From: a virus
Length of the DNA stretch: 64,000 nt
Strand: one strand, 5' to 3'
IMG/VR virus record: IMGVR_UViG_3300048837_000398
Coordinates: 39,012-103,011 of that record
In this document: piece after piece, positions 9,065 through 50,043 of the stretch
Position numbering within the stretch: the stretch's first letter is position 1
How the letters are laid out: the number at the start of each line of letters is the position of its first letter
The notes under the pieces: model-generated
The model's input: the letters and a program-made list of their open reading frames with translations, nothing else
Database searches by the model: none
Told to the model about the DNA's origin: nothing
Made by a program: the position numbers and the translations under genes

Positions 9065-9398
9065 AACTATCACTTCACTCACTAAGGAACTCTCGACAGC
9101 TCAAAAAGAGCTTTCCACCCTTTCTCTTCAGATCTCTACTCTCTCTACTGAGAAAGAGCAACTCACCGCCGTACTCCAAGAACGTCAGCGTTTGCTCGAG
9201 TACGTAGCATCTATTCTTCTCGAGATTCAGACTAACCTCGAAAAGTATCCAGCTCTCTTAAACATTCCGTCTAAAATCAAGATCTTCTGGGTAATCTCTA
9301 ATCTTGGCTCAATCATTTCTTTCCTTACTTTCCTCATTTCCAAGATCAAAGAGTTCGCAACAAACATCAAGTTTAATAAGGATGCTCCTGCTCAATAA
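9057..9398 (+). CDS. coiled-coil protein with C-terminal hydrophobic helix
   Basis: Heptad repeats followed by IFWVISNLGSIISFLTFLI. Confidence 0.6.
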   Translation: MAKTITSLTKELSTAQKELSTLSLQISTLSTEKEQLTAVLQERQRLLEYVASILLEIQTNLEKYPALLNIPSKIKIFWVISNLGSIISFLTFLISKIKEFATNIKFNKDAPAQ

Positions 9399-9876
9399 CT
9401 TTGATCCGTCACAAGACTTTTGGCTCTCTAATCCGCAAGCTCAAATCATCTTCGCTGACTACGTCAACACTCCTTCGTCACACATGTGGGCGGCTCTGCT
9501 CTATGCTCATCCAGAGTCAAAGCTGTTTAACGAGTCGCCCACGTCTCGACGTCTACTCATCATCGAAGACTATTTAAAAGACCCCTCTTTCGATTGAGAC
9601 TCTCTTCTTCCACTCATCGAAGCTATCAAAAGGCTAGCTCTTTCTAAGCCTCAACAGCTTCTTCTCAACTGGGAGAAGCGTATGTACGAACGAGAAGCTT
9701 TCATGGATTCGACCTCCTACTCTCAAGAGACGTATCAGATGAAAGAGCAGATGGCTAAGGAGACTCCTAAGATGTGGCAATCTTTTTTCCAGATACAAGA
9801 TCTCCTCTCGAAAGAGAAGGCGTCCGTCACTGAAGGAGATATCGAAGAATCGCTCTCTGAAAAAGGCTTAATCTAA
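9382..9876 (+). CDS. hypothetical protein (164 aa; TGA 9595 = Trp), possible small terminase subunit
   Basis: Track ORFs 9304-9597 and 9682-9876 are in one frame, joined as DPSFD-W-DSLL. The TerS role is a guess. Confidence 0.65.
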
Positions 9877-9881
9877 CGCAC

Positions 9882-10028
9882 ATGAAACGTCACTATTCTT
9901 CGAAACTAGACAAAGATGAAGCTCTAGCTTCGTACTCTCCACCACCCTTACCAAAGTCTCCGACTCCTCCAGCAAAAGATTCTTCTCCTACACTTTGGCA
10001 AAAGCTAAAAAGGGTCGTATCTTTATAA
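9882..10028 (+). CDS. 48-aa Pro-rich protein
   Basis: MKRHYSSKLD...PPPLPKSPTPP...TLWQKLKRVVSL*. Confidence 0.45.
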   Translation: MKRHYSSKLDKDEALASYSPPPLPKSPTPPAKDSSPTLWQKLKRVVSL

Positions 10029-10036
10029 CATCAACC

Positions 10037-10268
10037 GGGGATGAACCAGGCTCGACTAGTTAGCTAGTATCTTTTAATCGACAATTACCACTTCACTCTT
10101 GGCCTCGACATAGATCAAGATCTGCTTCTCTCTGTAGCGGATGAAACAACAGAGACAGTACCGTCCACATTACAAGAAGTTTTAGTTTAATCACCACTCA
10201 CACGCTTACCCACACGCTAGTAAACTAGCCTACTAACTAGGACGCGGGGGCAGTGCCCGCCATCTCCA
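10037..10268 (+). ncRNA. ssrA: tmRNA (compact, 232 nt)
   Basis: GGGGATG/CATCTCC-A acceptor with G3:U70; 5' GG..CGAC motif; helix 2 CTAGTTAG/CTAACTAG; T-arm GCGGG-GGCAGTG-CCCGC; tag frame 10080-10190. Confidence 0.88.
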
Positions 10269-10803
10269 AGCGCCTATGCGAATTAAAGAAAAAGTTTGTT
10301 CTAATTGTCTTCAAACTTTCAAACCAACGTCGCGGCATCGACTCTGTCCTAAATGCAGAAACTCTCTCTGCAGGAAGGAATGCCAAAATTGCGGACGACC
10401 TATTCAGTGTAAGTCAAAATATTGCGTACTATGTTCTAACAAATTAGAGCCGCGCAATACTTCACCACTAAAGATCAGAGCCGCAAACCACGCTTTGAAT
10501 AAAGCCCGTTCTCGTCACCACGTAGTAGACATAACTGCTGACTATCTAATAGAATTATTAGAACACCAACAGTCTAGGTGTGCTTATACAGGTTTACCGA
10601 TGTACTTACCTACATCTACTAAGTCTTGTGAAGATAAACGGTTATGCGCATCTTTGGACCGAATCGACTCCACCCTACCATACACAAAAGGTAACGTACA
10701 ATGAGTAGTCGTACCAATTAATCTAATGAAAAATACTATGTCTGACCAAGACACTCGTGAATTTATTTCGTGGCTCAAGAATTCTTAGTGCCCGCCATCT
10801 CCA
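10252..10803 (+). repeat. 17-bp direct repeat AGTGCCCGCCATCTCCA flanking the HNH gene
   Basis: Exact copies at 10252-10268 and 10787-10803; only the second is followed by CCA. Confidence 0.95.
10276..10788 (+). CDS. HNH-type endonuclease with N-terminal CxxC zinc ribbons (170 aa; TGA 10702 = Trp)
   Basis: Four CxxC pairs, then CAYTG...SLDRIDS...YTKGNVQ-W-VVVPINLMK. Confidence 0.8.
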
Positions 10804-10805
10804 CC

Positions 10806-11012: not shown

Positions 11013-11013
11013 T

Positions 11014-11101: not shown

Positions 11102-11104
11102 TAC

Positions 11105-11187
11105 GGAGAGATGGCAGAGCGGTTTAATGCACTAGTCTTGAAAACTAGCGGTCTCACGATCCCCGAGTTCGAATCTCGGTCTCTCCG
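11105..11187 (+). tRNA. tRNA-Ser (anticodon TGA, reads TCA)
   Basis: GGAGAGA/TCTCTCC-G acceptor; CTAGT-CTTGAAA-ACTAG anticodon arm; variable arm; CCGAG-TTCGAAT-CTCGG T-arm. Confidence 0.93.
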
Positions 11188-11246
11188 CATCACCTGTGTT
11201 GGTGCTAAACAGTGTGGTTTAAGTTGTAAAAACTTACCACACACCT

Positions 11247-11332: not shown

Positions 11333-11345
11333 CCCTCTCGAGGTA

Positions 11346-11424
11346 TAGTATGTGGTGTACGATGCACGTTCGAATATCCGCGCGGTCACTTCGGAAAGAG
11401 TAAGTTTAATTCTTATCATACTAA
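11346..11424 (+). ncRNA. tRNA-like RNA with 15-nt anticodon loop
   Basis: TAGTATG/CATACTA-A acceptor; GTGT/GCAC D stem; TTCGAA-15nt-TTCGGA; GTAAG-TTTAATT-CTTAT T-arm. Confidence 0.55.
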
Positions 11425-11426
11425 CT

Positions 11427-11636
11427 ATGGATAAAATATACCAATTCTTAGGTGAGTTTGATTCTTCTAAATTAGAAGAGCTTACCGTTCAAGATCCTGA
11501 TTGGGTTCTTGCACACTTTAAACATGACAATTGGGGTACTCTAACATCTAGAGAACACTATGAGCAATCTAAAAGATTAGATAAAGAGTTCAAAGAGTTA
11601 GAGGCTTCCCTAACATTCGGAAAGAAACCCACTTAA
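11427..11636 (+). CDS. hypothetical protein
   Basis: MDKIYQFLG...; start moved to ATG 11427, downstream of the tRNA-like RNA. Confidence 0.6.
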   Translation: MDKIYQFLGEFDSSKLEELTVQDPDWVLAHFKHDNWGTLTSREHYEQSKRLDKEFKELEASLTFGKKPT

Positions 11637-11637
11637 T

Positions 11638-11877
11638 ATGAAACACGTAGAATACCTTACTAAGGCAGAATTTTTAGAGCGTTTTGGTCATCTTTTGTCC
11701 GACGAAGAACTTAAGCCTCTAAACTTGAATCCAGAAGATTTAGACCCTTACAGAATACACTTTATTCCTAAGACTGAGCTAGAACTTCGTCTTAAGAAGT
11801 ACCCACGAGTTCCTGCTGAATGTTACGACAGCCCTCACACACTAGAAAATGAAGACTTACAAAGTAAAAGTACGTAA
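11638..11877 (+). CDS. hypothetical protein
   Basis: 79-aa ORF. Confidence 0.6.
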   Translation: MKHVEYLTKAEFLERFGHLLSDEELKPLNLNPEDLDPYRIHFIPKTELELRLKKYPRVPAECYDSPHTLENEDLQSKST

Positions 11878-12103
11878 GGGTTACTTAGGTGACTTTGCCC
11901 GCGAATGGTGGACTGATGAAGACCACGTTACATGGGATAAACATGTGGAGCAGTTAAAAGCTGACGGTACTTTTGGCGAAGAATCTACAGTAGAAATCTC
12001 TCTAATACATAATCCTAAACTTGACGCTTGTCAACTATACTCTCCACTTCAAAGTGCTCGATTTGATTTTCTAGATTTTTCTAAACCACTACCTAATGAA
12101 TAA
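11849..12103 (+). CDS. hypothetical protein
   Basis: 84-aa ORF. Confidence 0.6.
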   Translation: MKTYKVKVRKGYLGDFAREWWTDEDHVTWDKHVEQLKADGTFGEESTVEISLIHNPKLDACQLYSPLQSARFDFLDFSKPLPNE

Positions 12104-12470
12104 AGATCTGATAGTTCAACAAGTAATCAATAAGTTTGAAACTCGTTCAGCATTAGGAATCGCTAAGTACGGCACTACGCTACACGACAATAATACAGAT
12201 GATTTCCTTACCCATCTTCAGGAAGAACTGATGGACGCTACCCTTTATGTTGAGAAATTACGTCAGTCCCCCAAACAGCTTTTCATAAAGAACACGCTCG
12301 TCAAAGATTCGGAGGGAATAGTCCTTAGATGTATTGTCGCTGATCGTGAAACAGCTATCTTTGCTCCATATTCAGAGAATCCACAAGATGGTTCTTTCTA
12401 CACTAATTATTCTGAGCTTTCAGCGTACTTTAACGATCCTTCTATACCTAACGATCTAATAATTATCTAG
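12096..12470 (+). CDS. MazG-like all-alpha NTP pyrophosphohydrolase domain protein
   Basis: R...G..KYGTTL...L.HLQEELMDATLY motif. Confidence 0.65.
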   Translation: MNKDLIVQQVINKFETRSALGIAKYGTTLHDNNTDDFLTHLQEELMDATLYVEKLRQSPKQLFIKNTLVKDSEGIVLRCIVADRETAIFAPYSENPQDGSFYTNYSELSAYFNDPSIPNDLIII

Positions 12471-12471
12471 C

Positions 12472-12834
12472 ATGGAACAACCACTACTTACACCGCTAAC
12501 ACTTGAGGTTAGCATCACTAATAAGCATGGCGATAAGATTCGTCACTATTACGAAGAAATGACTGATTCTAATGGCCACCCCATTGAGCTTCAGATAATG
12601 AATAATTTAGACTACATTTGTGAGTCCATAGCTCACTGGCTAAAATTAGATCGCATAGAATTCGAAACGCGCATTCCACCTAATGATAACGACGAGTACG
12701 TCGTCAACTACAAGAACGAAGACAGAAAGTTCCCTACAGAAACGGTTGTTTTTGCAGACAATCTTACTAACATTAGAGCTGGCATTATCAAAGGCACACC
12801 TTCTATCACAATTCGAAAAAGTTATGCTACGTAG
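12472..12834 (+). CDS. hypothetical protein
   Basis: 120-aa ORF. Confidence 0.6.
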   Translation: MEQPLLTPLTLEVSITNKHGDKIRHYYEEMTDSNGHPIELQIMNNLDYICESIAHWLKLDRIEFETRIPPNDNDEYVVNYKNEDRKFPTETVVFADNLTNIRAGIIKGTPSITIRKSYAT

Positions 12835-12856
12835 ATTTTCACAAGCTTAATTACTC

Positions 12857-12952
12857 GGGGGTGCTTCACTGTTGCAGAACAGGACTAGTCTTCAAAACTA
12901 GACGACTGGGGTCCAAACTCAGTTTATTCGGGTGCAAGTCCTGACACCCTCG
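12857..12952 (+). tRNA. opal-decoding tRNA (anticodon TCA), atypical long-variable-arm body
   Basis: GGGGGTG/CACCCTC-G; D hairpin CTGTT-GCAG-AACAG; CTAGT-CTTCAAA-ACTAG (anticodon 12892-12894); variable arm ACTGGG-7nt-CTCAGT; T-arm TCGGG-TGCAAGT-CCTGA. Confidence 0.88.
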
Positions 12953-12967
12953 CAAAATTCAACAACT

Positions 12968-13210
12968 ATGAACTGTCTAGAATTCGCTCTTAACGAGTGG
13001 CAGAATAATCCTAACGTCATTATTCTTTACGATGCAGACCACGTAGTATGTATTACAGACAAGTGCTACGACCAAAACGGGCCTTGCGCATACTTCTTAG
13101 ATCCTACGAAATATCTTCCACTTAAAGAATATGGTCTAAGACATCTACTCAGCTCTTTCGACTTAACTACACACTATTCGAACATTTTAAAAGCTTACCT
13201 AAATCAATAA
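12968..13210 (+). CDS. hypothetical protein
   Basis: MNCLEFALNEW...; start moved downstream of the tRNA. Confidence 0.6.
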   Translation: MNCLEFALNEWQNNPNVIILYDADHVVCITDKCYDQNGPCAYFLDPTKYLPLKEYGLRHLLSSFDLTTHYSNILKAYLNQ

Positions 13211-13215
13211 TCACT

Positions 13216-13404
13216 ATGTCACACATGCTAATGGAATCTTCAGCCTCTCCTTGTCCTTGTGAAGAACGCGCTTCAACCGAACTTACTCGCTACACGATTC
13301 GTTTCTCTACTCAAGAGCCCGTTAACTTAACGACAATCCAACATCTAGTAGACACAGCTTTTCCTAACGCTCGCATAGATGCTCTCGAAATCAACCGATG
13401 GTAA
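13216..13404 (+). CDS. hypothetical protein
   Basis: 62-aa ORF. Confidence 0.45.
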   Translation: MSHMLMESSASPCPCEERASTELTRYTIRFSTQEPVNLTTIQHLVDTAFPNARIDALEINRW

Positions 13405-13649
13405 CAGCCAACCTATCGTTTCTAGACAACGAAGTACTGCTCTATCACTCGACACTCCAACTAGAGAGTGTGAAAGATGTCGACAAAGCGCTAGACGCAG
13501 AGCTCTCAAACTTAAAGATGGCGATATTCGCTCACATCTACAAAAACCGTCCTTCAGAGTGGCACGAACCAACGCCGCTTCCTAACACAAACTTACTCAA
13601 TGACAAAGAAAGTTATTACAGGCCCATCACTCCAGACGTCACTACTTAA
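13398..13649 (+). CDS. hypothetical protein
   Basis: 83-aa ORF overlapping the groEL start. Confidence 0.5.
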
Positions 13650-16191
13650 TGGCGTAAATACTATTGCTAATGCAGTAGGATCAACTCTTGGCCCACTAGG
13701 CCGTAACGTAGTTATCGAAACTCCGTATGGCGCAACAACTGTTACTAAAGATGGTGTTACAGTTGCTCAACAAATTACTCTCGAAGATCCTCTCGAGAAC
13801 TTAGCTGTTCAAATTATTAAGCAGGCATCAGAGCGCACAGCTTCTATAGCTGGCGACGGACCACAGCCCCTTTATTCGAAAGTTCTCACACCAACTGGGT
13901 GGACAACTCTAGGTGAACTAAAAGTTGGAGATACCATTTGTGGTACAAATGGTACTACACAAAAGGTCGTAGGCTTTTACCCTAAAGGACCCTTACCTTT
14001 ATATAAGGTTATTTTTTCGGACGGAAGAACAGTTGAATGTTCGGAAGACCACTTGTGGACCGTGACCACTAATTACGGAAAACAAAAAACTCTGCCTCTA
14101 AGTGAGCTTATAAATCAAGGTTTGTCGTTAATTAACGACGACGGCCACAATAAGTACAAGTTTTTTGTTCAAACTACTGAAGTAGAATTTGATGAAAAAC
14201 CCCTCCCCTTAGATCCTTACTTTCTAGGAGTATTGCTTGGAGATGGTTCCCTAAGTGGAAGTGGTGCAATTGAGCTCTCGTTAGGCCTCAAGAAGGCACA
14301 CATACTACAAAAGCTTCTTTTGCCAGAAGGCATGAGTTTTACGATCGCTTTAGATGAATCTAAAAATTATATTAGAGTTAGATTTCAAGGTGCTGATAAA
14401 AATGGGAAAAATCTAAAAGACATTCTTTTAGATTTAAATTTGCTCGGAACACATAGCGCTACAAAATTTATTCCGGACCTATACCTCTATTCGAGCTTAA
14501 AATCTCGCGAAGCCCTTTTACAGGGTCTCGTAGACACTGATGGCCATGTTAATCTTCGTGGCAAATTCGAGTTTAGTACTATAAGCGACCAACTATCTGC
14601 CAACTTTCAAGATTTGGTACGCTCACTGGGCATTCAGACGCACTACACAAAGTTAGACCGAACATATTCTGGCGGATATTCTGTAAACCCAGTCCATCGG
14701 ATAGTAGAATTAAAAGGGTACAAACACGGCATCAAAATAGTAGATGTTCAACCTCAAAACAGATTTGAGGAGATGGTCTGTATTAAAGTTTCAAACGATG
14801 ACCATTTGTACATCACAGATGAATATGTCGTCACACATAATACAACTACTGCAACAGTACTCGCGCAAAAGCTTTATTCCGAAGCACTTAAACTAGTTAA
14901 CTCGGGTGTCGCCCCTATCCACATCAAGAACGATTACGAAGCCTACTTAAAAGCTATCGCCCCTCTTATCGACGATAATACGCTCCAGATTACGACGCCT
15001 CAAGACACGTACCAGATCGCACTTATTTCTGCGAATAACGATCCGACTATTGCATCTCTTATTTCGACAGCTATCGAATACGTAGGCAAGGATGGCTCGA
15101 TTACACTCGAAGAGTCTAAGACTGGCGAGTCGTATGTAGAGCTAGTAGACGGTACTTCTTTCGAGCGCCCTTACGCTTCTCCGTACTTCGTCACTAATCC
15201 GCCTAAAGGGACAGCTGAACTCACCAATCCGCTCATCTTTATTACGGATAAGAAACTTCGCTACAATCAAGAGCTTCTTCCCGTACTCAACTTAGCAGCC
15301 GATAACTCACGTCCACTAGTTATTATTGCAGACGATATCGAAGGTCAAGCTCTTCAGACGCTCGTCATCAACAAGCTTCGCGGTACTATCGAGGTGCTAG
15401 CTATCAGAGCTCCTTCGTACGGTGAGAACCGTCTCGAAGTACTTAAAGACCTCGCAGCCCTCACTTCAGCGAACCTTATTACAGAGCTCTCTGGAACACG
15501 TATCGAAGATGTTAAGCTCACTGATTTAGGTGAAGCGGCTAAAGTGATTTCTTCGCGTCACCAAACTATCATTGTTGATGGTGTTCAAGATCCCACCCAA
15601 ATCGAAGCTCGTGCGAGTACAATCACACAGCTTCTCGCTCAACATCAGCCAGACTCATATTTCTATAAGCAGCTCTCTACTCGACTAGCTAAGCTCACTG
15701 CTAAGGTTGCAGTGCTCAATGTAGGAGCACCTACAGAAACCGAGCTTAAAGAGCGCAAAGCCCGTGTTGACGACGCACTTCGAGCTACTACAGCAGCTAT
15801 TAAAACTGGTTTCGTAGTTGGTGGCGGTACGCTTCTCGCTAAGCTCTCGACTACCCTCCCTAACGATCTTTCGTCTAAAGCCTTCGCACTAGCTCTTCAA
15901 GAACCTCTTCGTCGAATAGCTGAAAATGCTGGACAATCTCCGTCTCTCGTCCTTTCAAAAGTACTTGAGAACCCTTCGATTTCATTCGGTTATAACGCTT
16001 TAACTGACTCCTATACAGATCTTATCGAAGACAAGGTTATCGATCCTGCACTCGTAGTGAAGCAAGCGCTACTCTCCGCAGTTTCAGCAGCAAACATGCT
16101 CATCCTATCTTCGACTGCAGTCTACAATGTAGATCGCACTCCTCCTTATTCTCCAGGCTCTCTAAATGATTTTGAATCGCACGAATCCTAA
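13600..16191 (+). CDS. groEL: chaperonin GroEL with intein (536 aa after splicing)
   Basis: [22 protein letters not shown]|[34 protein letters not shown] and VIDP motifs. Confidence 0.96.
13861..14841 (+). mobile_element. class 3 intein with LAGLIDADG endonuclease (327 aa)
   Basis: Starts [14 protein letters not shown] and ends VVTHN|T. WCT triad: DHLW, MVCIKV, THN. Endonuclease motifs LGVLLGDG and LQGLVDTDG. Confidence 0.92.
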
Positions 16192-19100
16192 CGACTTCAT
16201 AGTCGAGATTCCGCAGCATCATCCGCTTTCTTCAGCATATTTATCGTTCTGACGCGAGCAAAAAAGACGTTCAATAGAAGGTTATTGGGTAGGTGGCATT
16301 TGAATGCCTCCTGCCCTTTACTATTATGCGAACTTCGGAACAATCAAGAAGAACCGCTCTAAGTATTCAGCTTCCTCCAAGATCTATGCGCGGCCTGACT
16401 TACGAGACATCGAATGGGATCTATTCTATCTCTATACAGAAGCGCGAGGATTCTCAGGATTTTCTCTCGACCCCGTCTACTCCTCTAACAAAGCTCTACT
16501 TGACGCAGAAGTAACTGACGATATTCTTCGACTTCACCTGCCATCTACACTCAAGGCTGACGGATCTCGCAAAACATTCGTTCCAGCTCGCGAGTATATG
16601 CGCGCTCTACACCCTACCCAACTAGGCGCACCTCTTTTCGAAAATGAAAAGCAGAACCTTCTTCTTCTCGGTACTCGAGATCTCGGCAAGTCGTATGCTG
16701 TAGGTGTAGGCATGGTTGGCCACATGTTCCTTTTCGATGGCGCAACTTCTTATTCAGAGTCTCGCGAAGAGCTCTCTCCAGCTGAAGTTCTTGTAGGAGC
16801 ATCTGTTTCAGACAAATCTCGAGATCTACTTAAAAAAACAAAAGACTCGTTCGATTTCTTACCGGGCAAGCAAATCATCGCCTCACGCACTTACCCTTCT
16901 CCTTTCTCTAAACAGTACACAGGCTCGTGAGCAGTTAATGCTGATATCAAGGCCGAATATAAAAAGAAGTCTGATGGGCGATGGGAGACAGTGGGCTCCC
17001 GCTCTACGATTAAGCATCGCTCTTTCAACGAAAACCCGTTTGCTGCACAAGGTACTCGCCCTGACTTACTTGTCATCGAGGAAGCTGGTCTAGCTTCAGA
17101 GCTCAAAGACATCTTCGTGCACACTGTCGACACACTGCGTCGAGGTCTAACTAAGACTGGGACATTGCTTTGCTTGGGTTGTGTCGTAGCTGGCACTAAA
17201 GTTTGAACATCTAAAGGTAAACTTCTAAACGTCGAAGATCTTACCGTAGAAGATGGAATCTTAGGTTACTCTGGATCAGCAATTGTACCTCTACCAATCA
17301 CTAACATTAACCCAATCGCAGTAAAACAGTGTGTCAGAATTACGACCGAAGGTAACAACGTTATCGAAGCCTCTATAGACCACCCATTTTTAGCCTCTTC
17401 TCGTAAAGAACGGCTTTCTAACACAACGTACAATTATAATTTCAAGCAAGCCGCTACACTAAACGTAGGTGATTACTTAGCGCTAGCTAACGAAATCCCG
17501 TTTTTTGGAGAAGTCGAGGAAAAAGACGCTTACTTAATAGGGCTGATGCTCGGTGACGGCTACTTTAAAGGCTCGTCAGTTTCGATCGATAACGACGAAG
17601 TCTACAACTTTATTTCGACTAACTACGAAACGTCTACACACAAAAGGTACGAAACTAAAAAAGGGACGCTGTACTACGAGCTCTACATAAAAGGGATTAG
17701 TCAAAAGCTAAAAACTCTAGGGCTAACGGATCTTACTAAAGAACAAAAAGATTTTCCGCTTACAGCACAAGAATTTTCGAAAGAGTCTTTAGCACTTCTG
17801 CTAGCAGGTTGCTTCGACTCAGATGGAAATGTCAATAGGTCTAAAAAGACAACACGTGTTGTTCTAACTAATATTTCGTTAAAACTACTTCAATCGGTTA
17901 AATGGGCCCTTTTAAAATTTGGCATCCATTCTTCGATCTACAAAGAGAAACGAAACACGAAGCCCCCTAAAGGCTACGAAAATCAGCTACCGCATATTTA
18001 CAGACTCTACATTTCTAGAGACGCAGACGTCGCCACGTTTAAGCAGTACATTCCAATTAAGCATTCTAAAAAAGTCGAAACTCTAGGCCAATTTACTCCA
18101 GGTAATCGTCAAGTTGGAAAACACTTAGGAGTCTTCACACTTACAAACCGCCATGAAGACGAAACATTCTTAGCCGATAACTCGTCGATTTCTAACTTTA
18201 GATTCGTACGCGTGACTTCTGTCGAGGCAATTGGTGAAAAAGAAATCTACAACCTAACTGCAGGAGAATATCATAACTATCTAGCCAATGGCTTCATCAC
18301 CCATAACACAGGTGGAGACATGCAGAAGGGCACGCTCGCAGCTTCCGAAATGTTTTACGAGCCCGAGAAATACGACTTCCTTTCTTTCGAAGATACTTAC
18401 GAGTCTCGAGGCAAGATAGCATATTTTGTGCCCGCCTACTATTCTCTCGATAAGTTTCGAGACGATTGGGGTTACGTAGACATTCAAAAAGCTACAGAAA
18501 GCCTACTGCTTAAACGCAAGAAACTAGCTGGTGATTCTGGAGGTTCGTTCGCTCTCGACCAAGAGATGCAGTATCGTCCTCTCGTACCTTCCGAGATGTT
18601 TCTTTCGAAAGCAGCTAACATATTCCCGTTCGCAGAAATACGCCGCCGTCTCTCAGAACTACAGACTACGAAAGAATACGAAATGTACGAGCACAAGGTC
18701 AACCTATATTTTGACCCTTCTTCACAGTATAATGGTGTGTCGTACGCTATCGACCCCTCGCTAAATCCGATCACACGTTTCCCGTGAGACTCTGACGACA
18801 GAGAAGGTGCAGTAGTTATCTACGACTTCCCGCACTTAGAAGATGGTAAAGTGCCTCCTGGCGCTTATATCATAGGATGCGACCCTTTTAAAGATGATTC
18901 ACCTGACGGGCCCTCACTCGCCGCTGTCTACGTCATGAAGACGTCTAAGTACTTTGCGACGATAGGCCACGACGAAATAGTAGCATCTTACATAGGTCGT
19001 CCATACATGGGTAAGAATGCTGTCAACGAGATCCTGCATAAACTAGCGCTCTTCTACAACGCTAAAATTTACTTCGAAAATTCTGTCGGCAACGTAAAAG

Positions 19101-19543
19101 ACTACTTCGAAAAAGTTCGACGCCTCGACCTACTCGCTACGCAGCCAACTACAATTTTCAACAAAAAAGCTTCGTTCCTTTCGAATCAATCGTTCATCTA
19201 TGGCTACCCCATGCCAAACCAAAAAGTTAAGTGGGAAGCTCTGCAGTATCTACGAGCTTGGCTACTTACAGAACGTTCAGACTCTAAAAGAAACTTAGAC
19301 CTCATCAAAGATCCAGCCCTTCTTCAAGAACTTATTTCGTTTAACCTCGACGGAAACTTCGACAGAGTCATGGGCCTCACTGGCTGCATAATAGGGCTCG
19401 AAGAAATATATAACCTACAAAGACGCACCGAGCATTATCAAAAAGAATCTTCGGAGCTAGACAAAGAATTTACTAGACTTATTGTCAACAACAAAAAACT
19501 TTTCCATGAAAATTTTTCCAAAACAAAGGCTAGCGTACTCTGA
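16166..19543 (+). CDS. terL: terminase large subunit with intein (TGA = Trp at 16250, 16301, 16928, 17204, 18785)
   Basis: One continuous frame: F-W-REQKRR..GY...-W-MPPALYYY, GTRDLGKS (Walker A), LLVIEEAG (Walker B), G|TGGD, IIGCDP nuclease motif, GNFDRV. About 749 aa after splicing. Terminal TGA is backed by TAA three codons later. Confidence 0.93.
17180..18307 (+). mobile_element. intein with LAGLIDADG endonuclease (376 aa)
   Basis: G|CVVAGTKV-W-T...SIDHPF...IGLMLGDG...LAGCFDSDG...IYNL...FITHN|TGG. Confidence 0.92.
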
Positions 19544-21899
19544 GAAAATTAAGTCGGACTTCAAATGGGCGAAAGAAACTATCGACCACTTGCTTCTTAA
19601 TTTTACTCTCGAGGCTACCGTAGTCAATCAATATCACACTGACTACTTCAGAAAGCTTTCTAATTACCAGCTCTATAACAATCAGCTAAACCAAAAAGAT
19701 TTCGAAAAAGAGTGTAACCCACTCGGCATCGATGTCGGGCAATTTGCTGACGAGATTCAACCGTACAACAAAACGTACAACAAGATTCAAGTCTTGCTAG
19801 GTGAGGAGCTGCGTCGTCCGTTCAACTTCCGAACTATACTTGTCAATTCAGAAGGAGTTCGTTCGAAGATCGCACACCGTAACGCACTAATTCGTCAATA
19901 CGTAGAAACGCAAGTAAAGAAAACTCTAGCTCAATTCTCTGAGCTCTATTCTGAAGAACTGCTAGAAGAAGCTTCGACTCCGACGCTCGACCCTTCGCAG
20001 ATAGATGTCTACATGAAGACTACGTATCTCGACGCACGCGAACGACTTTCTTCGCAGATGCTGCGCTACCTACTCCGTTCACTCGACATCAAAGACAAAC
20101 AGTCTGATGGCTTTAAACACGCATGCATTGCTGGCGAAGAACTTGTCTACGTGTCTTCATTTCGTAACGAACCAGTACTCGAGATCGTTAATCCGCTCGG
20201 ATTCTTTTCGCACAAATCACCCGAGACTAAGTGAGTTCAAGACTCTCTTTTCGCAGGCTATCGTACGTATCTCACTCCTTCAGAAGTCCTAGATCGTTAT
20301 GGCGACTACTTGACAGAAGAACAACGTAAGACCATCGACTCTACTTCGATGGCACCATCAGGCATCAAGTCTGACACTATCTCTGGAGCACATCGTTACG
20401 GTCACGAAAACATGGATCGCAACGAATCGACAACTCCTTTCTTCGAAGGTTCGTATTCACCGTCATCCGTAGAAGACTGGCTAGTCGAGCACGTAGAATG
20501 GCGCTCACAACGTAAGGTAGGCTTTCTCATCACCACTCCACTAGACCAAGAACCTTCTGAGCAGATCGTATCTGAAGACTTCGAAGTTCCGTCTATCGCC
20601 TCGAAGACAACTATCTTAAAAGAGTACAATCGAAAGCAAACGTCGTACAATTGGACAGACGAGCTAGGCACTTCTTACTCACTTCACTGGTCGTGGATTC
20701 CTGAAGTTTGGCAAGGTACTCGTATCGGTCGCACTATCTACTGTATGATAGGCCCTAAAGAAGAGCAGTTCCGTTCGCAAGATAATCCGTACGAAGTAAA
20801 GCTCGGTTATCATGGCCTGGTCTATAATGCGATGAACGCTTCGTCTATCTCGATAATGGACCGCATGAAGCCTTTTGCTTATCTCTACTTTATCGTGATG
20901 CACAAGCTCAAAAAGCTCATTGCTCAAGACCAAGGCAAAGTGTTCCCTATCGACGTTTCGATGATAGATCCTAAGATAGGACTCGAGAAGACACTCTACT
21001 ACCTAAAAGAACTCAACTTAGACTTCTATAACCCGCTTCAAAATGCTGAAGTTCCTTCAGTAGCTCAGCGTGGTAAAGTTACTTCTGCGATCGACATGTC
21101 GAACATGCAGCACATACTTAACTACGTATCCTTACTCGGCGCACTAGATCAGCAAATTTCTGAAGTGGCAGGCGTAACGCGCCAACGTGAAGGGCAGATT
21201 CTACCTACTGAAGCTGTTACTAATGCAGCAGCTAACGCACAAATGTCGTCAGTGATTACGCAGATTTATTTTCAGGCTCACGATAAACTCTGGGAAAAGA
21301 TTCTCACTTCTCTTCTTCAAGTAACACGCCAAGCTTGGAAAAACAAGAAGATCGTGAAGCAATATGTTCTCGACGATCTATCAGTAGCTACTCTCGAAAT
21401 GTCTGAAGACGCGCTTCAAGATGCAGACTTAGGGGTTTTTGTTACGGACTCTGGTAAAGAAGTCGAAATGTTTGACGCGCTCAAGGGCATGGCTGATGGA
21501 TTACTCAACACAAACCGAGCTACGTTCTCAGACCTCATCAAGATGTACAAATCTAACTCTGCAGAAGAACTTCAAAAGCTTATCGAAGATTCTGAAGACA
21601 AGATGCGCGAGCAAGAATCTCAAAGTCAACAGCAACAGATCGAAGCTGCTCAACAGGCTCAACAAGCTGAACAACAGTTCGAACTCGAGAAGCAAGCGCG
21701 TGAGCACGAAAATCAAATTACTCTTGCTGAAATTAATTCGTTCCGTTTCCAAGATAACCAAGACATAAATAGCAATCAAGTACCTGACCAACTTGAAGTA
21801 GCTAAGCTTAAATACGACCAAGAATTCAGAAACCGTAAGCTCGACTTAGAAGAACGCTCTGTTAAAGTGAAAGAAAAACAAGCTTCTAAACCTAAATAA
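19506..21899 (+). CDS. portal protein (797 aa; TGA 20232 = Trp)
   Basis: Follows TerL. FP.Q.L....K, NYQLYN, EWRSQRKVG, WIPEVWQGTRIG and GVTRQREGQ patterns and the coiled-coil C-terminus fit crAss-like portals. Confidence 0.9.
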
Positions 21900-45097: not shown

Positions 45098-45887
45098 CTA
45101 CGTTTCAATTAAGTCTGTGCTGCACGATCTTTCGTCGATGATAGATGAGCGTTATTGGAACGAATCTGCGATGGAAGAATGGATTACTAAAGCTCTTCGG
45201 CAACTCAACATCGAACCTGCTCTAGAGCAAGCTGTAGCACTGCTCGAAATATGCGAGCACAAAGCGCAACTCCCTTCTGATCTTAAGTATCTTACTCAGA
45301 TAACGTATAAGGCTACACCAATGCCTGAAGACGAACTCGCTGCGATTATCGCTGACTTAGATCTTCCTTCGAACTCTAACCTCTTTCTCTACCACTCTGC
45401 CCTAAAGAATCTGAAGTGGCTGCCACTACGGCTAGCTACGAATCCGTTTCACAACTCGATCTGCTTAGACGAAACTCTTACGAAATGCCTTAACTGCCAA
45501 TACGAGTTTACTGTTTCACCTTCGATGGTGCTGACTACTAACTTACGCTCAGGGCTCATACTTGTTTCGTACTTACGTTTCCCCGTAGATGAAGATGGCT
45601 CAGCCCTTATTCCAGACAACGAAACTCTGAAAGAAGCGATCCTTCATTATGCCCTCTACCGCTACTGGATGACACGCTACATAATGAAAGAAGACGGTGC
45701 AGACTCTCGCGTTAAGTTCCACTCGACTATGTGGGACACGCTTTCTAAGAAAGCGCTAAACCTGAACCTACCTGATCTCTCTATGCTCGAGAACATAAAG
45801 AACCAACGTAATAGACTTGTTCCGCGTTCACGTATGTTCCAAAATAATTTTATGAACTTAAATAGCGAAGAAAATGTTGACTTCTAA
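45087..45887 (+). CDS. tail tubular/ring protein (P22 gp4-like position)
   Basis: YVSIKSV...WI..AL...HKAQLP.D...G.I.VSY...PVDEDG..LIPD pattern. Confidence 0.75.
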   Translation: MTTNYVSIKSVLHDLSSMIDERYWNESAMEEWITKALRQLNIEPALEQAVALLEICEHKAQLPSDLKYLTQITYKATPMPEDELAAIIADLDLPSNSNLFLYHSALKNLKWLPLRLATNPFHNSICLDETLTKCLNCQYEFTVSPSMVLTTNLRSGLILVSYLRFPVDEDGSALIPDNETLKEAILHYALYRYWMTRYIMKEDGADSRVKFHSTMWDTLSKKALNLNLPDLSMLENIKNQRNRLVPRSRMFQNNFMNLNSEENVDF

Positions 45888-48800
45888 AGGCATCGTAAAA
45901 GGGATGTCTCAAGACGTGCATCCCCGCTACCAACCACCCAACACATATTATTCTGCTCTTAACGCTGTGCTCGAGTCTAACGATGGTGACATACTTACGC
46001 TTTCTAACGAGCTAGGCAATCTTCAAGAACTCTCTACTTACCCGATCAACGAAGACGGTATCCCTAAGAAAGTGATCGGTAATCGGCTCTTAGATGACGG
46101 TACAACAGTGCTCTTTATTTTTGATCCAGCTGAAACACGTCCTGTTCACGAAATAGGAATATGGGACCCATTCAAAAATACGTACACAACTTACGTTAAG
46201 GGCGAACCTCTTTACTTTTCTGACAAGCACTACGTCAACGCTATCTACCGCATAAAGAATGGCTGTGAGCGCGTAGTCTACTTTACGGATAATCTTAATC
46301 CGTATCGCGTAATTAACTTAGACCGGCCAGAGTACTATACTCAACCACCTAATCCGCAGCTACTGTCTGTAGACAAGCTTAAGTACTCTCCAGACACGCG
46401 GCCAATATCTCTCGATCTTTCGACGCAGACTTTTGGCGGATCGCTAAACGTAGGCACATATGCTTTTGCAGTGCGCTTGCTAGACCAAGACTACAATCCT
46501 ACTAAGTGGCTGATAGTTTCTTCGTCCATTCCAATTACAGATGACGATCTAAAGATGCTCGAGCCTCTTCAGATAGATGGTGCAGCATCGAACATAGACG
46601 ACGTTGGTTACGTGCCCAAGACTACTAAGTCCATTAAGGTGGATCTCGAAAAGGTAGACACTCGCTTTACGTACGTACAACTTGCTGTCATAAAGTGGGA
46701 AGATGTTTCAGGAGCAGTTACGGGCGTAGAGATCCTCACGCCTACTAACATACCGTTCTCGTCGCTCCCCATTACAGATATGTCGATAGTCTATACAGGA
46801 CTCACTTCGCAGATCGAAAGCTTTTCCTCACTCGAAGACATCCTTACAGAGAAGGTACAGCTGGAGCAAGTTGTGACGCACGCGCAAAAGGATAATCGTC
46901 TGATGGTGGCTGGTCTCACATATACACCTAAAGACTACACAGGCTTCCAACGGCACGCATCTAAGATCTGGACGGAGTACGACATCTCTGATGGAGATCT
47001 AATTCACGAAACTATCAACGCGAAAGCTAAGCTCTCTAAGACAGATCTCTATTACTTCGAGCGTGGTTCGTTTACTTTCGACGAAGTCTACGCACTAGGC
47101 ATTGTCTATATTTGGGATGATGGCACAGAGTCTCCTGTGTTCCATATACCAGGACGCCCAATGTTTGATAATACTCTCGAAGTCTTTGGCACGAACCCAT
47201 ACATAACTACTAACTTAGACGAGTGGGATTCTTACGACGTAACAGGAGACATCAACATCTTTAACGATCTCAAGACCTCACGCTGGCAAGTGTACAATAC
47301 GCACATTCGCTCGTCCAACAACGCTGGCTACATGGGCTACTACGAGACTTCTACTCAGTATCCTCTTATCGATACGTGCAATGACGATCCGCTTACTTAC
47401 TGGGGCGAAGATTATTGGGGTAACGAAATAGAACCGCTAGTAACTAACATTCGTCACCACAGAATGCCTTCGTACCTAAAACCTTCAGGAGCTGACTTCT
47501 CTGCACTACGCTTAGGCATCAAGTTCCACATGTCTGAAGACTATCCACACGAACGTATTGTCGGACACTACTACGTATTTGGTGATCGTACTGAAGAGCG
47601 CACTATCGTCGACAAAGGATTCATCACTACACTAGGTGACGCTGGTAACGACAACTACCTTTTTAAATACAACATCTATCCGGGTGGAGCAAACGCAGTT
47701 CCTTCTAAAGAACTCTACGCCTATATTTCTCCAGAGGTTACATTCGAAGGTCGCACTGTTTCTGGTGACTACCTTACGGTAGAAAAAGCATACGATGGTG
47801 GTGATAACATGATTGCTACTAGCAACGCTCTAGTTGTTGCTAACGATATTTATGAGCAACCCATAAACGTGTGGGCAGTTCAACAAGTCTTCAGGAACTT
47901 TAATGAGCCAGTAGAGCTTAACTACAAACTTAAAGAGGCTGTCTACTTAGCTAAGTCACCTACAGAAAAGCTTCCTAATTATGTGTATGCTCATAACGAA
48001 GTCGCCACAGTTGAAAATCGTTCGATCCATACTAACGTGATGCTCTATCAAATTGAGCGTCCGTTTAAAGAAGTTGACGATTGGGCAGATGATTTCTACT
48101 CTTATGGTGGTAGTGGTGGCACTCCTTCTAATGGAGCTCGTACTCTCCACGTATCTGTTAAGAGAGATATCGACGTATTCGCTAATCTATTCGTAGTGCA
48201 ATATAAACGCATCGGCTCTTCGTTCTTAAATCGTTCAGGACTCTCAGGAGACTACGAGCAGCTTCACTATGAAGGAGATTCTTTCGTTACCTACTTCTCT
48301 GTGTTCGATTCTACGTGAACAGTTACACAAGGCCCTACTGAAGTAGATGCTACCGCATACGTAGGTATTCACGTAATAGACTGCGCAACTAATCCTGGTT
48401 TACGTTATGGCTCGCCGTCTAATCCACAGTTTACGTATCTCAAGCCACTGCTCAACACGACTAATGCTGACAATATAGGTCAGTACGTCGCATCAAAGTA
48501 CTACGAGACCATCCAAGGCCAAGGAGCTTTTTATCCAGAGTACTACGCTTCGAACAAAGCGTTCGACAACATCGGCTCGATAAAGCGCTATTATCCTATT
48601 TCTTTCGACTACGACTTTTGCTCGGAGTGCATCGAAGAGTTTCCTTATCGGATCTACTATTCGCAACTAGATGATATCGAACGGAGAAAGGATGCGTACA
48701 GAGAAATACTGCCTAACAACTATATAGATCTTGACGGCTCTAATGGAGCAATAACAGACCTGTTCGTAAACTTCAACGAGTTCTACGCAGCTACTCCACA

Positions 48801-50043
48801 CGCGCTCTACCTTATTCCTACTAACCAGCAAGTCCTTACGACAGAAGATGCTGAGTCAGTCTACATAGGATCTGGTAAAGTGTTTCAGCTACCACCCCGC
48901 CCACTTAAAAGCGCCGACAATGCGTTCGGTGGATTAGAGCTCTGGAAGTCGCGAGTGCTTACTGAGTACGGAGCATTCTACATGGACACTGCTTCAGCTA
49001 GACCGATCCTCCTTACTTCTAATCTCAAAGACCTTTCGCTAGAAGGCATGCGCACGTTCTTCCAAAAGAATGCTAAAGTTAAATTCTTAGGACAGTTCAA
49101 AGAACTCACAGGACAGACATACACTAACACTTCTACAGCTTCTGACGAAGGAGTAGGCTACATGTCGACGTATGATCCACGGTTCAAGCGCCTTATTATC
49201 CACAAGAAAGATTATACGTTCACACCTTCTGCTGCAGCACAACTTAAGTACTACTCGCCAGAGGTAGTTGCTACCGAAGAGTTCGTCCCTCCTCCCACAC
49301 TCTGGACAGACGGCTCTAAGTTCTACATCGATACTACTAAGGTAAGCTTAGATACTCCCGACTATTTTCAAAACAGAAGCTACACGATCTCGTATTCGTT
49401 TCTCAATCAGGCGTGGGTGTCCTATCACTCGTACTTCCCGTACTACATGTTCTTCGACAACAACTCTTTTTACTCGGACAACATCTTTACGCACGGTACC
49501 TCTAACTACCAGACTTTCTACGGAACTAAGTACGATCACTTCTTAGACATTATCGTGCCGATAGATCCTAACGAGCAGAAGACTCTTTCCTCCTTATCCT
49601 ATGTTTCTGACACGTGGCTGTACGACACTACTCTCGAAGCTTACGCTAAAACTGACGACACGTTCGATAGAGCAGTCTTCTACAACTCTACGCAGTCTTC
49701 AGGTAATAACTTCATAATCTCTAATCCTTCACCATTCGCAACAGTAGTCCCGCCTTCTTTAAAAGCTGTGCGTACTGACTCTAAGTGGCACATCAACGAC
49801 TTCAGAGATTACACTCTCAACGCGAACACACCTGTTTGGGATAACGCTCCATTCATACCTAACCCCACACTCTGGATAGACAGGAGCCCTAATCAAGCGA
49901 ACATCGATTCCAACAAATCTTTGTTCACGCTTCCACGTTTCAAAGACTTCTATCAGGGCGTGCGACTCTTCTTTAAACCAGACACTAACTTGAAAATTAC
50001 GACAGATCTAATTCAGACTCTGCATACCAATAAAAACCGATAA
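45874..50043 (+). CDS. tail stabilization/muzzle protein (1389 aa; TGA 48316 = Trp)
   Basis: KGMSQD...Y..ALN...NE.GN, YFTDNLNP.R.IN, DEVYALGIVY...DG.ESPVFHIPGR and W.SYHSY.P motifs; frame checked across 48319-48880. Confidence 0.85.

Follow-up and report, generated by a model that had tools for sequence, protein, structure and literature searches.

A crAss-like phage carries a 96-nt tRNA gene with two anticodon-type arms, one presenting UCA at the decoding position and the other presenting CCA where a long variable arm would stand, and the gene is best read as a remodelled tRNA-Trp. In the mechanism that we favour, with a probability of about 0.58, the RNA is an opal suppressor that arose from tRNA-Trp by duplication of the anticodon arm; the UCA arm would decode UGA, host TrpRS would charge the tRNA, and the CCA loop would help. 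The gene lies in what we call the window, the whole stretch of 64,000 nt that was analysed (positions 39,012 to 103,011 of IMGVR_UViG_3300048837_000398), and the phage genome to which the window belongs is complete, 103 kb long and bounded by terminal repeats.

UGA codons at tryptophan positions of phage genes

Recoding was apparent from in-frame TGA codons at Trp positions of conserved genes. The large terminase gene has such codons at 16250, 16301, 16928, 17204 and 18785, and its terminal TGA at 19541 is followed by TAA two codons later. Among non-redundant relatives these five sites are occupied, in order, by W in 6 of 6, by W and Y in three each, by W in 6 of 7, by Y (n = 1), and by W in three, Y in two and F in one together with four other residues. 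The portal TGA aligns with Y in eight non-redundant relatives, W in two and F in two, and the muzzle TGA with W in 9 of 16 homologues and Y in 4. Summed over eight TGA sites, the log-likelihood is −108.7 for W, −159.8 for Y and −194.8 for F, which puts Trp ahead of Tyr by 51 units, and at least six residues outscore Ser (below −277). Homologues have W, Y or F at the sites, not Sec or Cys. An initial annotation of the window had proposed that UGA is read as an amino acid at sites resembling Trp, and the summed likelihood, in which W scores best, agrees with it.

Related phages add to this pattern. In the two middle genes, the syntenic relative L070 has W at the site of the window TGA 9595 and an in-frame stop of its own at 10702. 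It also has stops at positions that are W in the window, the one in the homologue of window 9295-9873 being TGA by construction of that comparison, and a TGA at a position that is W in five relatives; L070 carries the same tRNA family. The sheath gene of another carrier, L066, has one TGA at a conserved W; the remaining three of its four TGA sites fall opposite D, G and I where conservation is poor. The L001 and L014 lineages likewise have TGA within the large terminase gene. Taq polymerase has Leu opposite one PolA TGA site, and for an L071 protein with four in-frame TGAs no homologues were found from which the TGA sites could be read. Late genes terminate with TAA (one with TAG); only two late gene ends are TGA, each backed by TAA two or three codons downstream, and the earliest phage genes still terminate at UGA. 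As far as sequence can tell, UGA means Trp in this phage.

A 96-nt tRNA gene with two anticodon-type arms

We judge the gene to be real and not a chance fold. It occupies a 133-bp gap separating two ORFs, and its cloverleaf is the minimum-free-energy structure (−35.3 kcal/mol, z = −2.9). The layout is in part canonical, with a 7-bp acceptor stem, a 5-bp T stem, a 5-bp anticodon stem and a 7-nt loop with U33. Position 8 is C, and the D hairpin has a core of 5 bp closed by a 4-nt loop without GG (CTGTT-GCAG-AACAG), with two optional outer pairs and a bulged A. The second hairpin has a 7-nt loop, GTCCAAA (12911-12917), in which CCA occupies 12913-12915. The sequence GCAAAA lies 3′ of the gene, where CCA is only partly encoded. 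Coordinates of all features are collected in Table 1.

The features described in the initial annotation (C at position 8, the D hairpin, the variable arm, the T loop and the discriminator G) are all in the sequence, and its view that the architecture is non-standard is supported. It had also remarked that arm 1 differs at one base from the anticodon arm of the phage tRNA-Ser(UGA), and comparison with 11105-11188 shows the same single difference. The long variable arm that it described is present, but its likeness to an anticodon arm, and the CCA in its loop, had been missed. An optional C12856:G12952 pair, which would have made the acceptor stem 8 bp long, is excluded: CCA directly follows G73 in four of the five family members, and the acceptor stem is therefore 7 bp. 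The −1 base in front of the discriminator is C or U, as it is in ordinary tRNA-Trp genes.

Table 1. Positions in the window of the tRNA gene and its parts, of the neighbouring tRNA gene, and of the genes that have in-frame TGA codons and are discussed in the text.
Feature	Position	Strand	Details and evidence
Two middle genes, in-frame TGA 9595 and 10702	9304..10788	+	syntenic relative L070
Phage tRNA-Ser(UGA)	11105..11188	+	neighbour of the suppressor tRNA, separate gene
Whole tRNA gene, G1 to discriminator G73	12857..12952	+	fold, homologues, covariation
Acceptor stem, 5′ strand GGGGGTG	12857..12863	+	pairs with 12945-12951, one G.U pair
Compact D hairpin	12866..12884	+	core stem 12869-12873 / 12878-12882, loop GCAG 12874-12877
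Anticodon arm 1	12885..12901	+	stem CTAGT/ACTAG, loop CTTCAAA 12890-12896, anticodon UCA 12892-12894
Second anticodon-type hairpin, variable-arm position	12904..12924	+	stem 12904-12910 / 12918-12924, 6-7 bp
T arm TCGGG-TGCAAGT-CCTGA	12928..12944	+	T loop TGCAAGT non-canonical
Acceptor stem, 3′ strand CACCCTC, and discriminator G73 (G12952)	12945..12952	+	
Large terminase gene with intein	16166..19552	+	PHROG and Pfam matches
Portal gene, in-frame TGA 20232	19482..21899	+	PHROG portal match, residues 6-797, spanning the TGA
Muzzle protein gene, in-frame TGA 48316	45874..50043	+	homologues are single proteins of ~1,400 aa

A conserved family that escapes standard searches

A search pattern in which the T stem and the 3′ strand of the acceptor were held constant retrieved the homologues. 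They occur in four further phage lineages of IMG/VR and score 42-88 bits with a model built on the window sequence alone, which gives five distinct sequences in all. Each folds independently into the same four-hairpin cloverleaf. Pairing holds in 97.5% of the cells of the family alignment, with compensatory changes in 12 pairs; none of 500 shuffles reached the observed values, and slid registers gave 0-1 such pairs. Acceptor pairs 1 and 2 covary (G1-C72 to A1-U72; G2.U71 to G-C or C-G), and two core pairs of the D hairpin are compensatory, its outer pairs not being conserved. The UCA-arm loop, CUUCAAA, is invariant in all five sequences, over a stem in which four of the five pairs are compensatory. 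The variable-arm loop reads N-U-C-C-A-(A/U)-N in every member, and five of the six pairs of its stem are compensatory; the length of this stem ranges from 5 to 9 bp. The remaining loops vary: D stems of 5-7 bp carry differing loops of 3-7 nt, six of the seven T-loop positions have changed, and the D and T loops are degenerate in three of the five members, the T loop being canonical (UUCGAUU or UUCGAAU) in two. In the L070 tRNA a group I intron separates U34 from C35 in the UCA loop, the classic site of tRNA introns. L066, which also carries the family, is an unrelated, myovirus-like phage, and the design would have spread among unrelated phages, crAss-like, myovirus-like and others.

Standard tools overlook the gene. 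ARAGORN made no call at 12857-12952 at default or lowered thresholds, with or without introns, and no Rfam model, RF00005 included, matched the locus at gathering thresholds. The best Rfam match is tRNA-Sec (RF01852), aligned over its full length with a score of 26.8 bits, where the threshold is 47 (E = 0.016 for 2.3 kb of searched sequence). Within the family ARAGORN called only the L063/L065 copy, which it named tRNA-SeC. Deletion of either hairpin in silico still left the window tRNA without a call, and after deletion of the CCA arm only L063 and L064 were called, as 'SeC(tca)'.

The exact anticodon-arm pattern had no match in IMG/VR, and blastn of the tRNA against GenBank phages found none. 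The pattern CTTCAAA..GGTGCAAGTCC gave 35 matches, all due to chance, and GGGTGCTT..CCTGACACCC gave just an unrelated coding repeat and no further members. The tRNA was absent near the portal gene in portal-based relatives (IMG/VR and metagenomes, 27-57% portal identity), inspected with at most 10 kb of upstream flank, as far as each contig reached. DNA contigs from activated sludge and wastewater contain a relative, ~90% identical, whose tRNA region does not align at ≥80%; in the 30 nt of it that are visible the T stem is unchanged and the T loop differs. None of the sequencing runs listed for the stretch was an RNA run. A search of window 9700-10950 for an Rfam tmRNA found none.

A tRNA-Trp body with two Trp-type arms

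Acceptor positions 3-7 of the window tRNA equal those of bacterial tRNA-Trp, and its T stem matches the one in bacterial tRNA-Trp genes base for base. Among 120 bacterial loci sharing the T-arm plus acceptor motif, the only tRNA genes, six of six, were tRNA-Trp(CCA). The acceptor is of the Trp type in its G73, G3-C70, G4-C69 and G5-C68, with A1-U72 or G1-C72, and the Bacteroidota tRNA-Trp acceptor, ACGGGUG/CACCCGU-G, recurs identically in family member L064. The part of the RNA that starts with the CCA hairpin and runs to the 3′ terminus has the form of a normal tRNA-Trp 3′ half, with a spacer of 3-5 nt like a class I variable loop. The arms point the same way. Against Bacteroidota tRNA-Trp anticodon arms, 12-15 of 17 positions are identical in the UCA arm and 11-13 of 17 in the CCA hairpin; Trp anticodon arms are the best match for both hairpins, save in L066, whose UCA arm is closer to a tRNA-Tyr arm. 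When a true tRNA-Trp was aligned with the covariance model, its anticodon arm was placed onto the variable-arm hairpin. The arm at the decoding position nonetheless has U34-C35-A36, not the C34-C35-A36 of tRNA-Trp, and CCA is found only in the extra-arm loop.

The initial annotation had described a chimera with a Ser-like anticodon arm and a Sec-like D arm and acceptor. Its remark that the acceptor also fits Trp agrees with the match of acceptor stem and T arm to bona fide tRNA-Trp. The chimera itself is not supported: the acceptor is 7 bp long and followed by G73-CCA, and in the family as a whole the UCA arm follows the Trp arm and not the Ser arm. The best reading of the window tRNA, from these alignments, is a remodelled tRNA-Trp, not a derivative of tRNA-Sec or tRNA-Ser.

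Decoding and charging of the probable suppressor

The UCA at arm 1 is the only UCA-anticodon tRNA gene in the complete genome; a second tRNA(UCA), which the initial annotation had proposed looking for, was not found. The whole genome was likewise searched for a synthetase and a release factor, and it contains neither TrpRS nor a class-II synthetase core nor a release factor, so that the phage synthetase outside the window invoked earlier is not there. Since the complete genome lacks a synthetase, charging must come from a host enzyme; because UGA is Trp and a phage synthetase is absent, we infer that this enzyme is the host TrpRS.

In the mechanism proposed here, an internal duplication of the tRNA-Trp anticodon arm would have freed the decoding arm to become UCA, its loop corresponding to CUCCAAA, that of Trp, but for a U in place of C34. 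The UCA hairpin, which adjoins the D stem at the anticodon-arm position of a class II (long-arm) tRNA, would decode UGA on the ribosome, and the CCA hairpin, at the position of the long variable arm, would have kept a 7-nt loop with U-CCA-A. A tRNA owes its Trp identity to the discriminator, the first pair of the acceptor and all three anticodon bases (PMC9976931). Host TrpRS would charge the tRNA, the CCA loop most likely supplying or restoring the full-anticodon determinant, and Trp would be inserted at UGA in replication and virion genes. That the retained CCA loop helps to keep TrpRS identity is probable. We are more tentative, and rate the chance at somewhat below even, about a strict 'two-headed' tRNA, in which identity and decoding are split between the two anticodon arms and the CCA copy is read by host TrpRS. 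Such a split would spare the phage the price normally paid for altering an anticodon when that anticodon is the main identity element for the synthetase. Rigid docking of the loop in the TrpRS anticodon pocket is hard to reconcile with a variable-arm stem that varies between 5 and 9 bp.

The same variation in stem length would suit an arm that has no identity role. The tRNA could be the same suppressor, charged with Trp, and the CCA hairpin a leftover of duplication kept as a generic long arm for folding, for EF-Tu or ribosome fit or for a modification enzyme, with TrpRS relying on G73, the acceptor and C35-A36. TGA suppressor tRNAs tryptophanylated in E. coli are cited by Borges et al. (10.1101/2021.08.26.457843). 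The related and complete crAss-like phage G001 uses a plain 75-nt Trp-like tRNA(UCA) (L024:1501-1575) without a second arm, so the CCA arm is not generally required for a UCA suppressor. We nevertheless consider a purely generic arm unlikely: U-C-C-A is invariant in the loops of five lineages despite changed stem pairs, D loops and T loops, and the extra-arm loop keeps the 7-nt format of an anticodon loop, whereas variable arms usually have short loops. A reversed assignment, with CCA as the working anticodon arm and the UCA hairpin inserted, would have the tRNA read UGG and miscode UGA through an altered D region, like the Hirsh suppressor. This is consistent with the normal tRNA-Trp 3′ half that begins at the CCA hairpin, with its 3-5 nt spacer. 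It is very improbable given the invariant UCA loop with its full anticodon-loop signature, the position of the UCA hairpin 0-2 nt from the D stem, as in anticodon stems, a CCA stem of 5-9 bp against 5 bp in real anticodon stems, and the intron of L070, which interrupts the UCA loop between U34 and C35.

Other explanations change the amino acid or the function. Charging wholly or partly by SerRS, with UGA read as Ser or ambiguously as Ser and Trp, draws on the long extra arm and G73, both present in the window tRNA and together the main SerRS determinants: the extra arm's size and not its sequence is the major identity element of tRNA-Ser, and in E. coli tRNA-Sec no serylation element is stronger than G73 (PMC9976931). 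The tRNA-Sec match in Rfam and the ARAGORN name of the L063/L065 copy lean the same way. We think it improbable, because relatives have W, Y or F at the TGA sites, with Ser far below W in likelihood, and at two terminase sites all or nearly all of them have W; in addition, the acceptor stem is of the Trp type and C2-G71 in L064 is an antideterminant for E. coli SerRS. The long arm of tRNA-Ser is oriented by inserted D-loop residues, for which the D loop here has no room. Still less probable than a reversed assignment is a non-translating decoy or regulator, such as bait for an anticodon nuclease or a TrpRS sponge, with UGA read by other means. The degenerate D and T loops of three of the five members would fit that role, but a UGA decoder is indispensable to the phage, which encodes no other. 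In unrelated phages, too, the family is found together with TGA at Trp sites, and its acceptor stem has stayed intact, with the CCA end encoded in four of five members. A selenocysteine (selC-like) tRNA or an allo-tRNA is scarcely credible at all. UCA, the long extra arm, a long D stem with a 4-nt loop, G73 and full-length alignment to tRNA-Sec recall that class; the score of 26.8 bits is nevertheless well short of 47, and the TGA sites lie in structural proteins at aromatic, not Cys, positions. We rejected selenocysteine on these sites and on an acceptor/T branch of 7/5, not 8/5 (13 bp), 8/4 or 9/3.

Relation to known tRNAs

Phages with TGA recoded to Trp provide the nearest known system, an opal suppressor tRNA(UCA) (Yutin et al. 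2021, PMC7886860; Borges et al., 10.1101/2021.08.26.457843), which shares the CUUCAAA loop, the Trp-type acceptor and G73. Those phages also resemble ours in having a crAss-like genome with recoded later genes and in the presumed charging by host TrpRS. Unlike the plain phage suppressor, the window tRNA is 96 nt long, carries a CCA hairpin in the variable-arm position and is missed by standard finders; its family also differs in the 5-7 bp D stem with a 3-7 nt loop and in a T loop that is often non-canonical. With bacterial tRNA-Trp(CCA) it shares acceptor positions 3-7, G73, the T stem, the spacer before the T arm and the loop xUCCAAA, but it has an extra hairpin, UCA in the decoding position and no canonical D arm (G18-G19).

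Other likenesses are more distant. tRNA-Sec (RF01852), allo-tRNAs and selC* tRNA-Cys likewise combine UCA, a long extra arm, a long D stem with a small loop and G73, and Sec-like tRNA bodies with another amino-acid identity have precedent (Mukai et al. 2017, PMC5389517); the window tRNA differs from tRNA-Sec and allo-tRNAs in its 7/5 branch, its Trp-derived body, its predicted insertion of Trp and its anticodon-like extra-arm loop. Class II tRNAs (Ser, Leu and bacterial Tyr) share the five-way junction and a long helix between the anticodon and T arms, but the extra-arm loop of the present family is 7 nt long and conserved in sequence, and its D arm is not of the 3-bp, large-loop type. In the tRNA-like structure of brome mosaic virus, an enzyme of the TyrRS/TrpRS subclass, TyrRS, reads anticodon-like nucleotides in an unusual geometry (PMC9976931). 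Elements of that kind belong to mRNAs or viral 3′ ends whereas the window RNA would be a decoding tRNA, and the likeness is one of idea only.

Implications

We regard the two-arm tRNA as a probable variant within the known phage suppressor-tRNA system; its architecture appears to be new, and a literature search found no description of a tRNA with two anticodon arms. A suppressor tRNA has been found in only 35% of TGA-recoded phage genomes (Borges et al., 10.1101/2021.08.26.457843), and both these authors and Yutin et al. (PMC7886860) guessed that divergent or non-canonical tRNAs escape the finders. The window tRNA is a concrete case of a suppressor that escapes, and it belongs to a conserved family, whose covariance model could recover missing suppressors in viromes. 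For 11 amino acids the synthetase reads the whole anticodon, and a change of anticodon also damages charging. A spare cognate anticodon on an extra arm would be a natural solution to this problem. If the proposal is true, the tRNA would represent a new principle of tRNA identity and a ready scaffold for genetic-code expansion with anticodon-reading synthetases.

UGA is read as tryptophan

The virus record comprises 103,011 bp with direct terminal repeats and a completeness rating of 100%, and the window covers its bases 39012–103011. PHROG and Pfam matches (large terminase with an intein, portal, crAss muzzle protein, GroEL with an intein) place it among the crAss-like phages. Described Crassvirales are distant, with portal identities of ≤31% to GenBank phages; the nearest portal relatives, contigs in IMG/VR and metagenomes, several from activated sludge, are 52–57% identical.

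Read with the standard code, several large genes are each broken by one in-frame TGA. The portal PHROG match continues across its TGA, muzzle homologues are single proteins of ~1,400 aa that match the length of the read-through frame, and the exonuclease and polymerase domains of PolA join across a TGA. Genes in the rightward late block stop at TAA (one at TAG), and the two TGAs found at gene ends there are each followed by a TAA two or three codons further on. TGA terminates genes in the leftward early block, and TGG is still the common Trp codon in the phage.

Residues aligned with the TGA sites, counted in non-redundant relatives, are listed in the table. With a substitution table derived from the same alignments, summed log-likelihoods were −108.7 for Trp, −159.8 for Tyr and −194.8 for Phe, with Ser, Cys and Gly each below −277. 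The aromatic residues in relatives and the best likelihood for Trp uphold the proposal that UGA delivers Trp. At one PolA site, Taq polymerase has the Leu of its FNLNS motif; a hydrophobic residue is compatible with this position but not diagnostic. TerL is also interrupted by TGA in two short contigs of related phages, L001 and L014, whose tRNA regions lie off the contigs, and the L014 codons fall on the two conserved Trp positions that correspond to 16250 and 16928. TerL starts upstream of ATG 16304, its conserved N-terminus holds two of the TGA codons (16250, 16301), and the TerL intein has an in-frame TGA of its own.

Positions of features in the window, or in the locus named
Feature	Position	Observation
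Syntenic to L070 tmRNA	~10035–10270 (+)	
tRNA-Ser(UGA)	11105–11188	
Second odd tRNA	11247–11332 (+)	
Upstream ORF, end	12834	
tRNA(UCA)	12857–12952 (+)	96 nt
Downstream ORF, start	12968	
GroEL	13600–16191	LAGLIDADG intein
TerL	16166–19552	LAGLIDADG intein; overlaps GroEL end
TerL TGA	16250	W 6/6
TerL TGA	16301	W3, Y3
TerL TGA	16928	W 6/7
TerL intein TGA	17204	
TerL TGA	18785	W3, Y2, F1 and four other residues (distant relatives)
Portal TGA	20232	Y8, W2, F2
Muzzle TGA	48316	W9, Y4
L070 group I intron	L070:3361–4082 (−)	722 nt
L070 tmRNA	L070:4771–5031 (−)	32-residue tag
G001 tRNA(UCA)	L024:1501–1575 (G001:C1:41524–41597)	75 nt
L021 tRNA-like element	L021:11082–11138 (−); genome 11074–11159, outside window	

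The tRNA belongs to a family with a conserved four-hairpin fold

Every feature that the initial annotation listed for the tRNA(UCA) gene is present in the sequence. The gene occupies the gap between two ORFs, and its minimum-free-energy fold is a cloverleaf (−35.3 kcal/mol, z = −2.9). ARAGORN made no call at this locus, its sole tRNA being tRNA-Ser(UGA), and Rfam at curated thresholds matched tRNA-Ser(UGA) and the second odd tRNA instead; at a relaxed threshold the top match was tRNA-Sec, full length, at 26.8 bits (cut-off 47).

R1, a covariance model built from this sequence alone, found no match near the portal genes of relatives. An IMG/VR search with a pattern covering T stem and acceptor 3′ strand recovered true homologues: one sequence shared by L063, L065, L069 and L072, one shared by L064 and L071, one in the myovirus-like L066, and one, in two pieces, in L070, which is syntenic with window positions 7800–13900. 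A group I intron (Rfam RF00028, 50 bits) with an HNH endonuclease ORF inside it separates U34 from C35 in the L070 gene, whose joined exons give a near-identical tRNA with A1-U72. The family reaches beyond crAss-like phages: L065 carries two tail-sheath genes, and L071 a terminase and portal of a different type.

L070 has an in-frame TGA where five relatives, the window included, have Trp, and Trp at the position of a window TGA; one HNH position has a stop in both. The tail-sheath gene of L066 has a TGA where Trp is conserved, with three others in poorly aligned stretches. Five L071 ORFs contain in-frame TGAs and are without homologues to align, and L065 (11.6 kb) contains none.

The five distinct sequences, folded independently, all adopted the same four hairpins. 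In a segment-wise alignment, compensatory changes were found at acceptor pairs 1 and 2, two pairs of the D-stem core, 4/5 pairs of the UCA arm and 5/6 pairs of the extra arm; the T stem is invariant because the search pattern fixed it. A four-sequence model alignment, fitted to the structure, had 97.5% of cells paired and 12 pairs changed on both sides, values attained by none of 500 shuffles, and slid registers gave 0–1 such pairs. The slid controls and independent folds argue that the pairing is not an alignment artefact. The D loops are not alike (GCAG, GUAG, AGG, AAG, UCGGACU), and the T loop varies at 6/7 positions. D loops with GG (L063, L064) accompany canonical T loops (UUCGAUU, UUCGAAU), and those without (window, L070, L066) accompany non-canonical ones, in what looks like a coordinated loss of elbow contacts.

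Activated-sludge and wastewater assemblies (runs X1 and X2) contain a phage ~90% identical in the flanking genes, in which the interval matching window 12836–12967 is not alignable at ≥80%. One of these contigs has the same T stem as the window, with the loop TTGGACA.

The body is that of tRNA-Trp and carries two Trp-type anticodon arms

The initial annotation described a chimera with a Ser-like anticodon arm and a Sec-like D arm. CCA directly follows G73 in 4/5 family members (the window has GCAAAA there), which makes G73 the discriminator and leaves an acceptor stem of 7 bp, in contrast to the 8/4 or 9/3 branches of tRNA-Sec-like tRNAs; known tRNAs of that kind have the identity of Cys, Ser or Ala, and some are phage-borne (PMC5389517). 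A C:G "eighth pair" was rejected as a Sec-like acceptor; such a pair also adjoins ordinary tRNA-Trp genes. When the 3′ pattern (T stem and acceptor 3′ strand) was scanned through 596 Gb of bacterial genomes, the 120 loci were mostly chance matches, and the tRNA genes among them were exclusively tRNA-Trp(CCA) (6/6), plus one 5′-truncated copy with a CUCCAAA loop. The best R1 matches in five Bacteroidota genomes were tRNA-Trp genes with the acceptor ACGGGUG/CACCCGU-G, identical to that of L064; the window shares positions 3–7 and G73. Pair 1-72 is G-C in some family members and A-U in others, the Trp-type pair being A1-U72 (PMC9976931). Judged by these sequence comparisons, the body is tRNA-Trp, and Ser or Sec ancestry is wrong; the one-base likeness of the UCA arm to the phage's tRNA-Ser arm is confined to this lineage and is no family trait.

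In a model alignment, the anticodon arm of real tRNA-Trp genes lands on the family's "variable arm" hairpin, behind which a 3–5 nt spacer leads to the T arm, as in the 3′ half of a normal tRNA-Trp. In all five members the extra-arm loop has 7 nt (GUCCAAA, UUCCAAC, GUCCAUA, GUCCAAU, GUCCAAA), and a U-turn-type U precedes its CCA. The first-arm loop, CUUCAAA in 5/5, equals the Trp loop CUCCAAA after a C34-to-U change. Both hairpins are nearest to Bacteroidota tRNA-Trp anticodon arms (10–15/17 identical for the first, 11–13/17 for the second), with other isotypes mostly at ≤11/17; the exceptions involve a tRNA-Tyr arm, which matches the first arm of the window at 13 positions and is closer (11) than the Trp arms (10–11) to the first arm of L066. 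The simplest route to this arrangement would be internal duplication of the anticodon arm of a tRNA-Trp gene, after which C34 would have changed to U in the upstream copy and the D arm would have been compacted. With two Trp-type anticodon arms in a conserved four-hairpin fold, the gene does represent a new tRNA architecture, as had been suggested.

Possible roles of the two arms

The UCA hairpin lies 0–2 nt from the D stem, and spacers of 2 and 3 nt border the second hairpin; we infer from this spacing a junction of the long-arm (class II) type, in which the UCA hairpin is the anticodon arm. Stems of 5–9 bp, the range seen in the second hairpin, are shown by variable arms and not by real anticodon stems. 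Together with the class II junction, this would assign the UCA hairpin to the decoding position.

Trp belongs to the 11 identities in which the full anticodon triplet takes part, in addition to the discriminator and first acceptor pair (PMC9976931), and a UCA suppressor is without C34; the CCA loop conserved in the extra arm may therefore be most economically read as a retained TrpRS determinant. TyrRS and TrpRS both approach the tRNA from the side of its variable loop, and in bacteria TyrRS grips the long arm of tRNA-Tyr, which makes TrpRS contact with the extra arm plausible. Several observations speak against the CCA arm being strictly required. Its stem length is not constant, SerRS could in principle use a long arm with G73, and G001, a complete crAss-like phage of 103 kb, has, in contrast to the two-armed design, a conventional Trp-like tRNA(UCA) with A1-U72, G73 and loop CUUCAAA, its only full-length Rfam tRNA match. 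That the two arms share out these roles between them is offered as a hypothesis rather than a result.

No further UCA tRNA was found in the 39 kb of genome that lie outside the window, so the conventional tRNA-Trp(UCA) that might have done the decoding was not encountered within the phage. Six-frame searches of the whole genome, positive in control genomes, detected no TrpRS/TyrRS family member, release-factor domain or class-II synthetase core.

Other RNA elements were also observed. The second odd tRNA (Rfam tRNA, 32.3 bits; no ARAGORN call) has a Leu-type D arm (GGCGGAATCGGTAGACGC), 31 nt in place of the 18-position anticodon region and no clear anticodon. ARAGORN called a tmRNA in L070, and the two ends of the syntenic window interval align with it (GGGGATG.. 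and ..CATCTCCAAGCG); neither ARAGORN nor Rfam called a tmRNA in the window. A borderline tRNA-like element in L021 (Rfam tRNA, 28.6 bits) covers model positions 10–63; its loop reads GAA (Phe), and its acceptor and D regions are set apart by extra bases.

It is established that crAss-like phages, among others, recode TGA to Trp in later genes and use suppressor tRNAs, and divergent or non-canonical tRNAs have been proposed for the many recoded genomes without a detectable suppressor (PMC7886860; 10.1101/2021.08.26.457843). We found no description of a second anticodon-like arm on a tRNA, or of a long-armed Trp suppressor, in full-text literature covering few subscription journals. The tRNAs described here are a small family, structurally a variant form of the phage opal suppressor already known, and are spread over unrelated phages.
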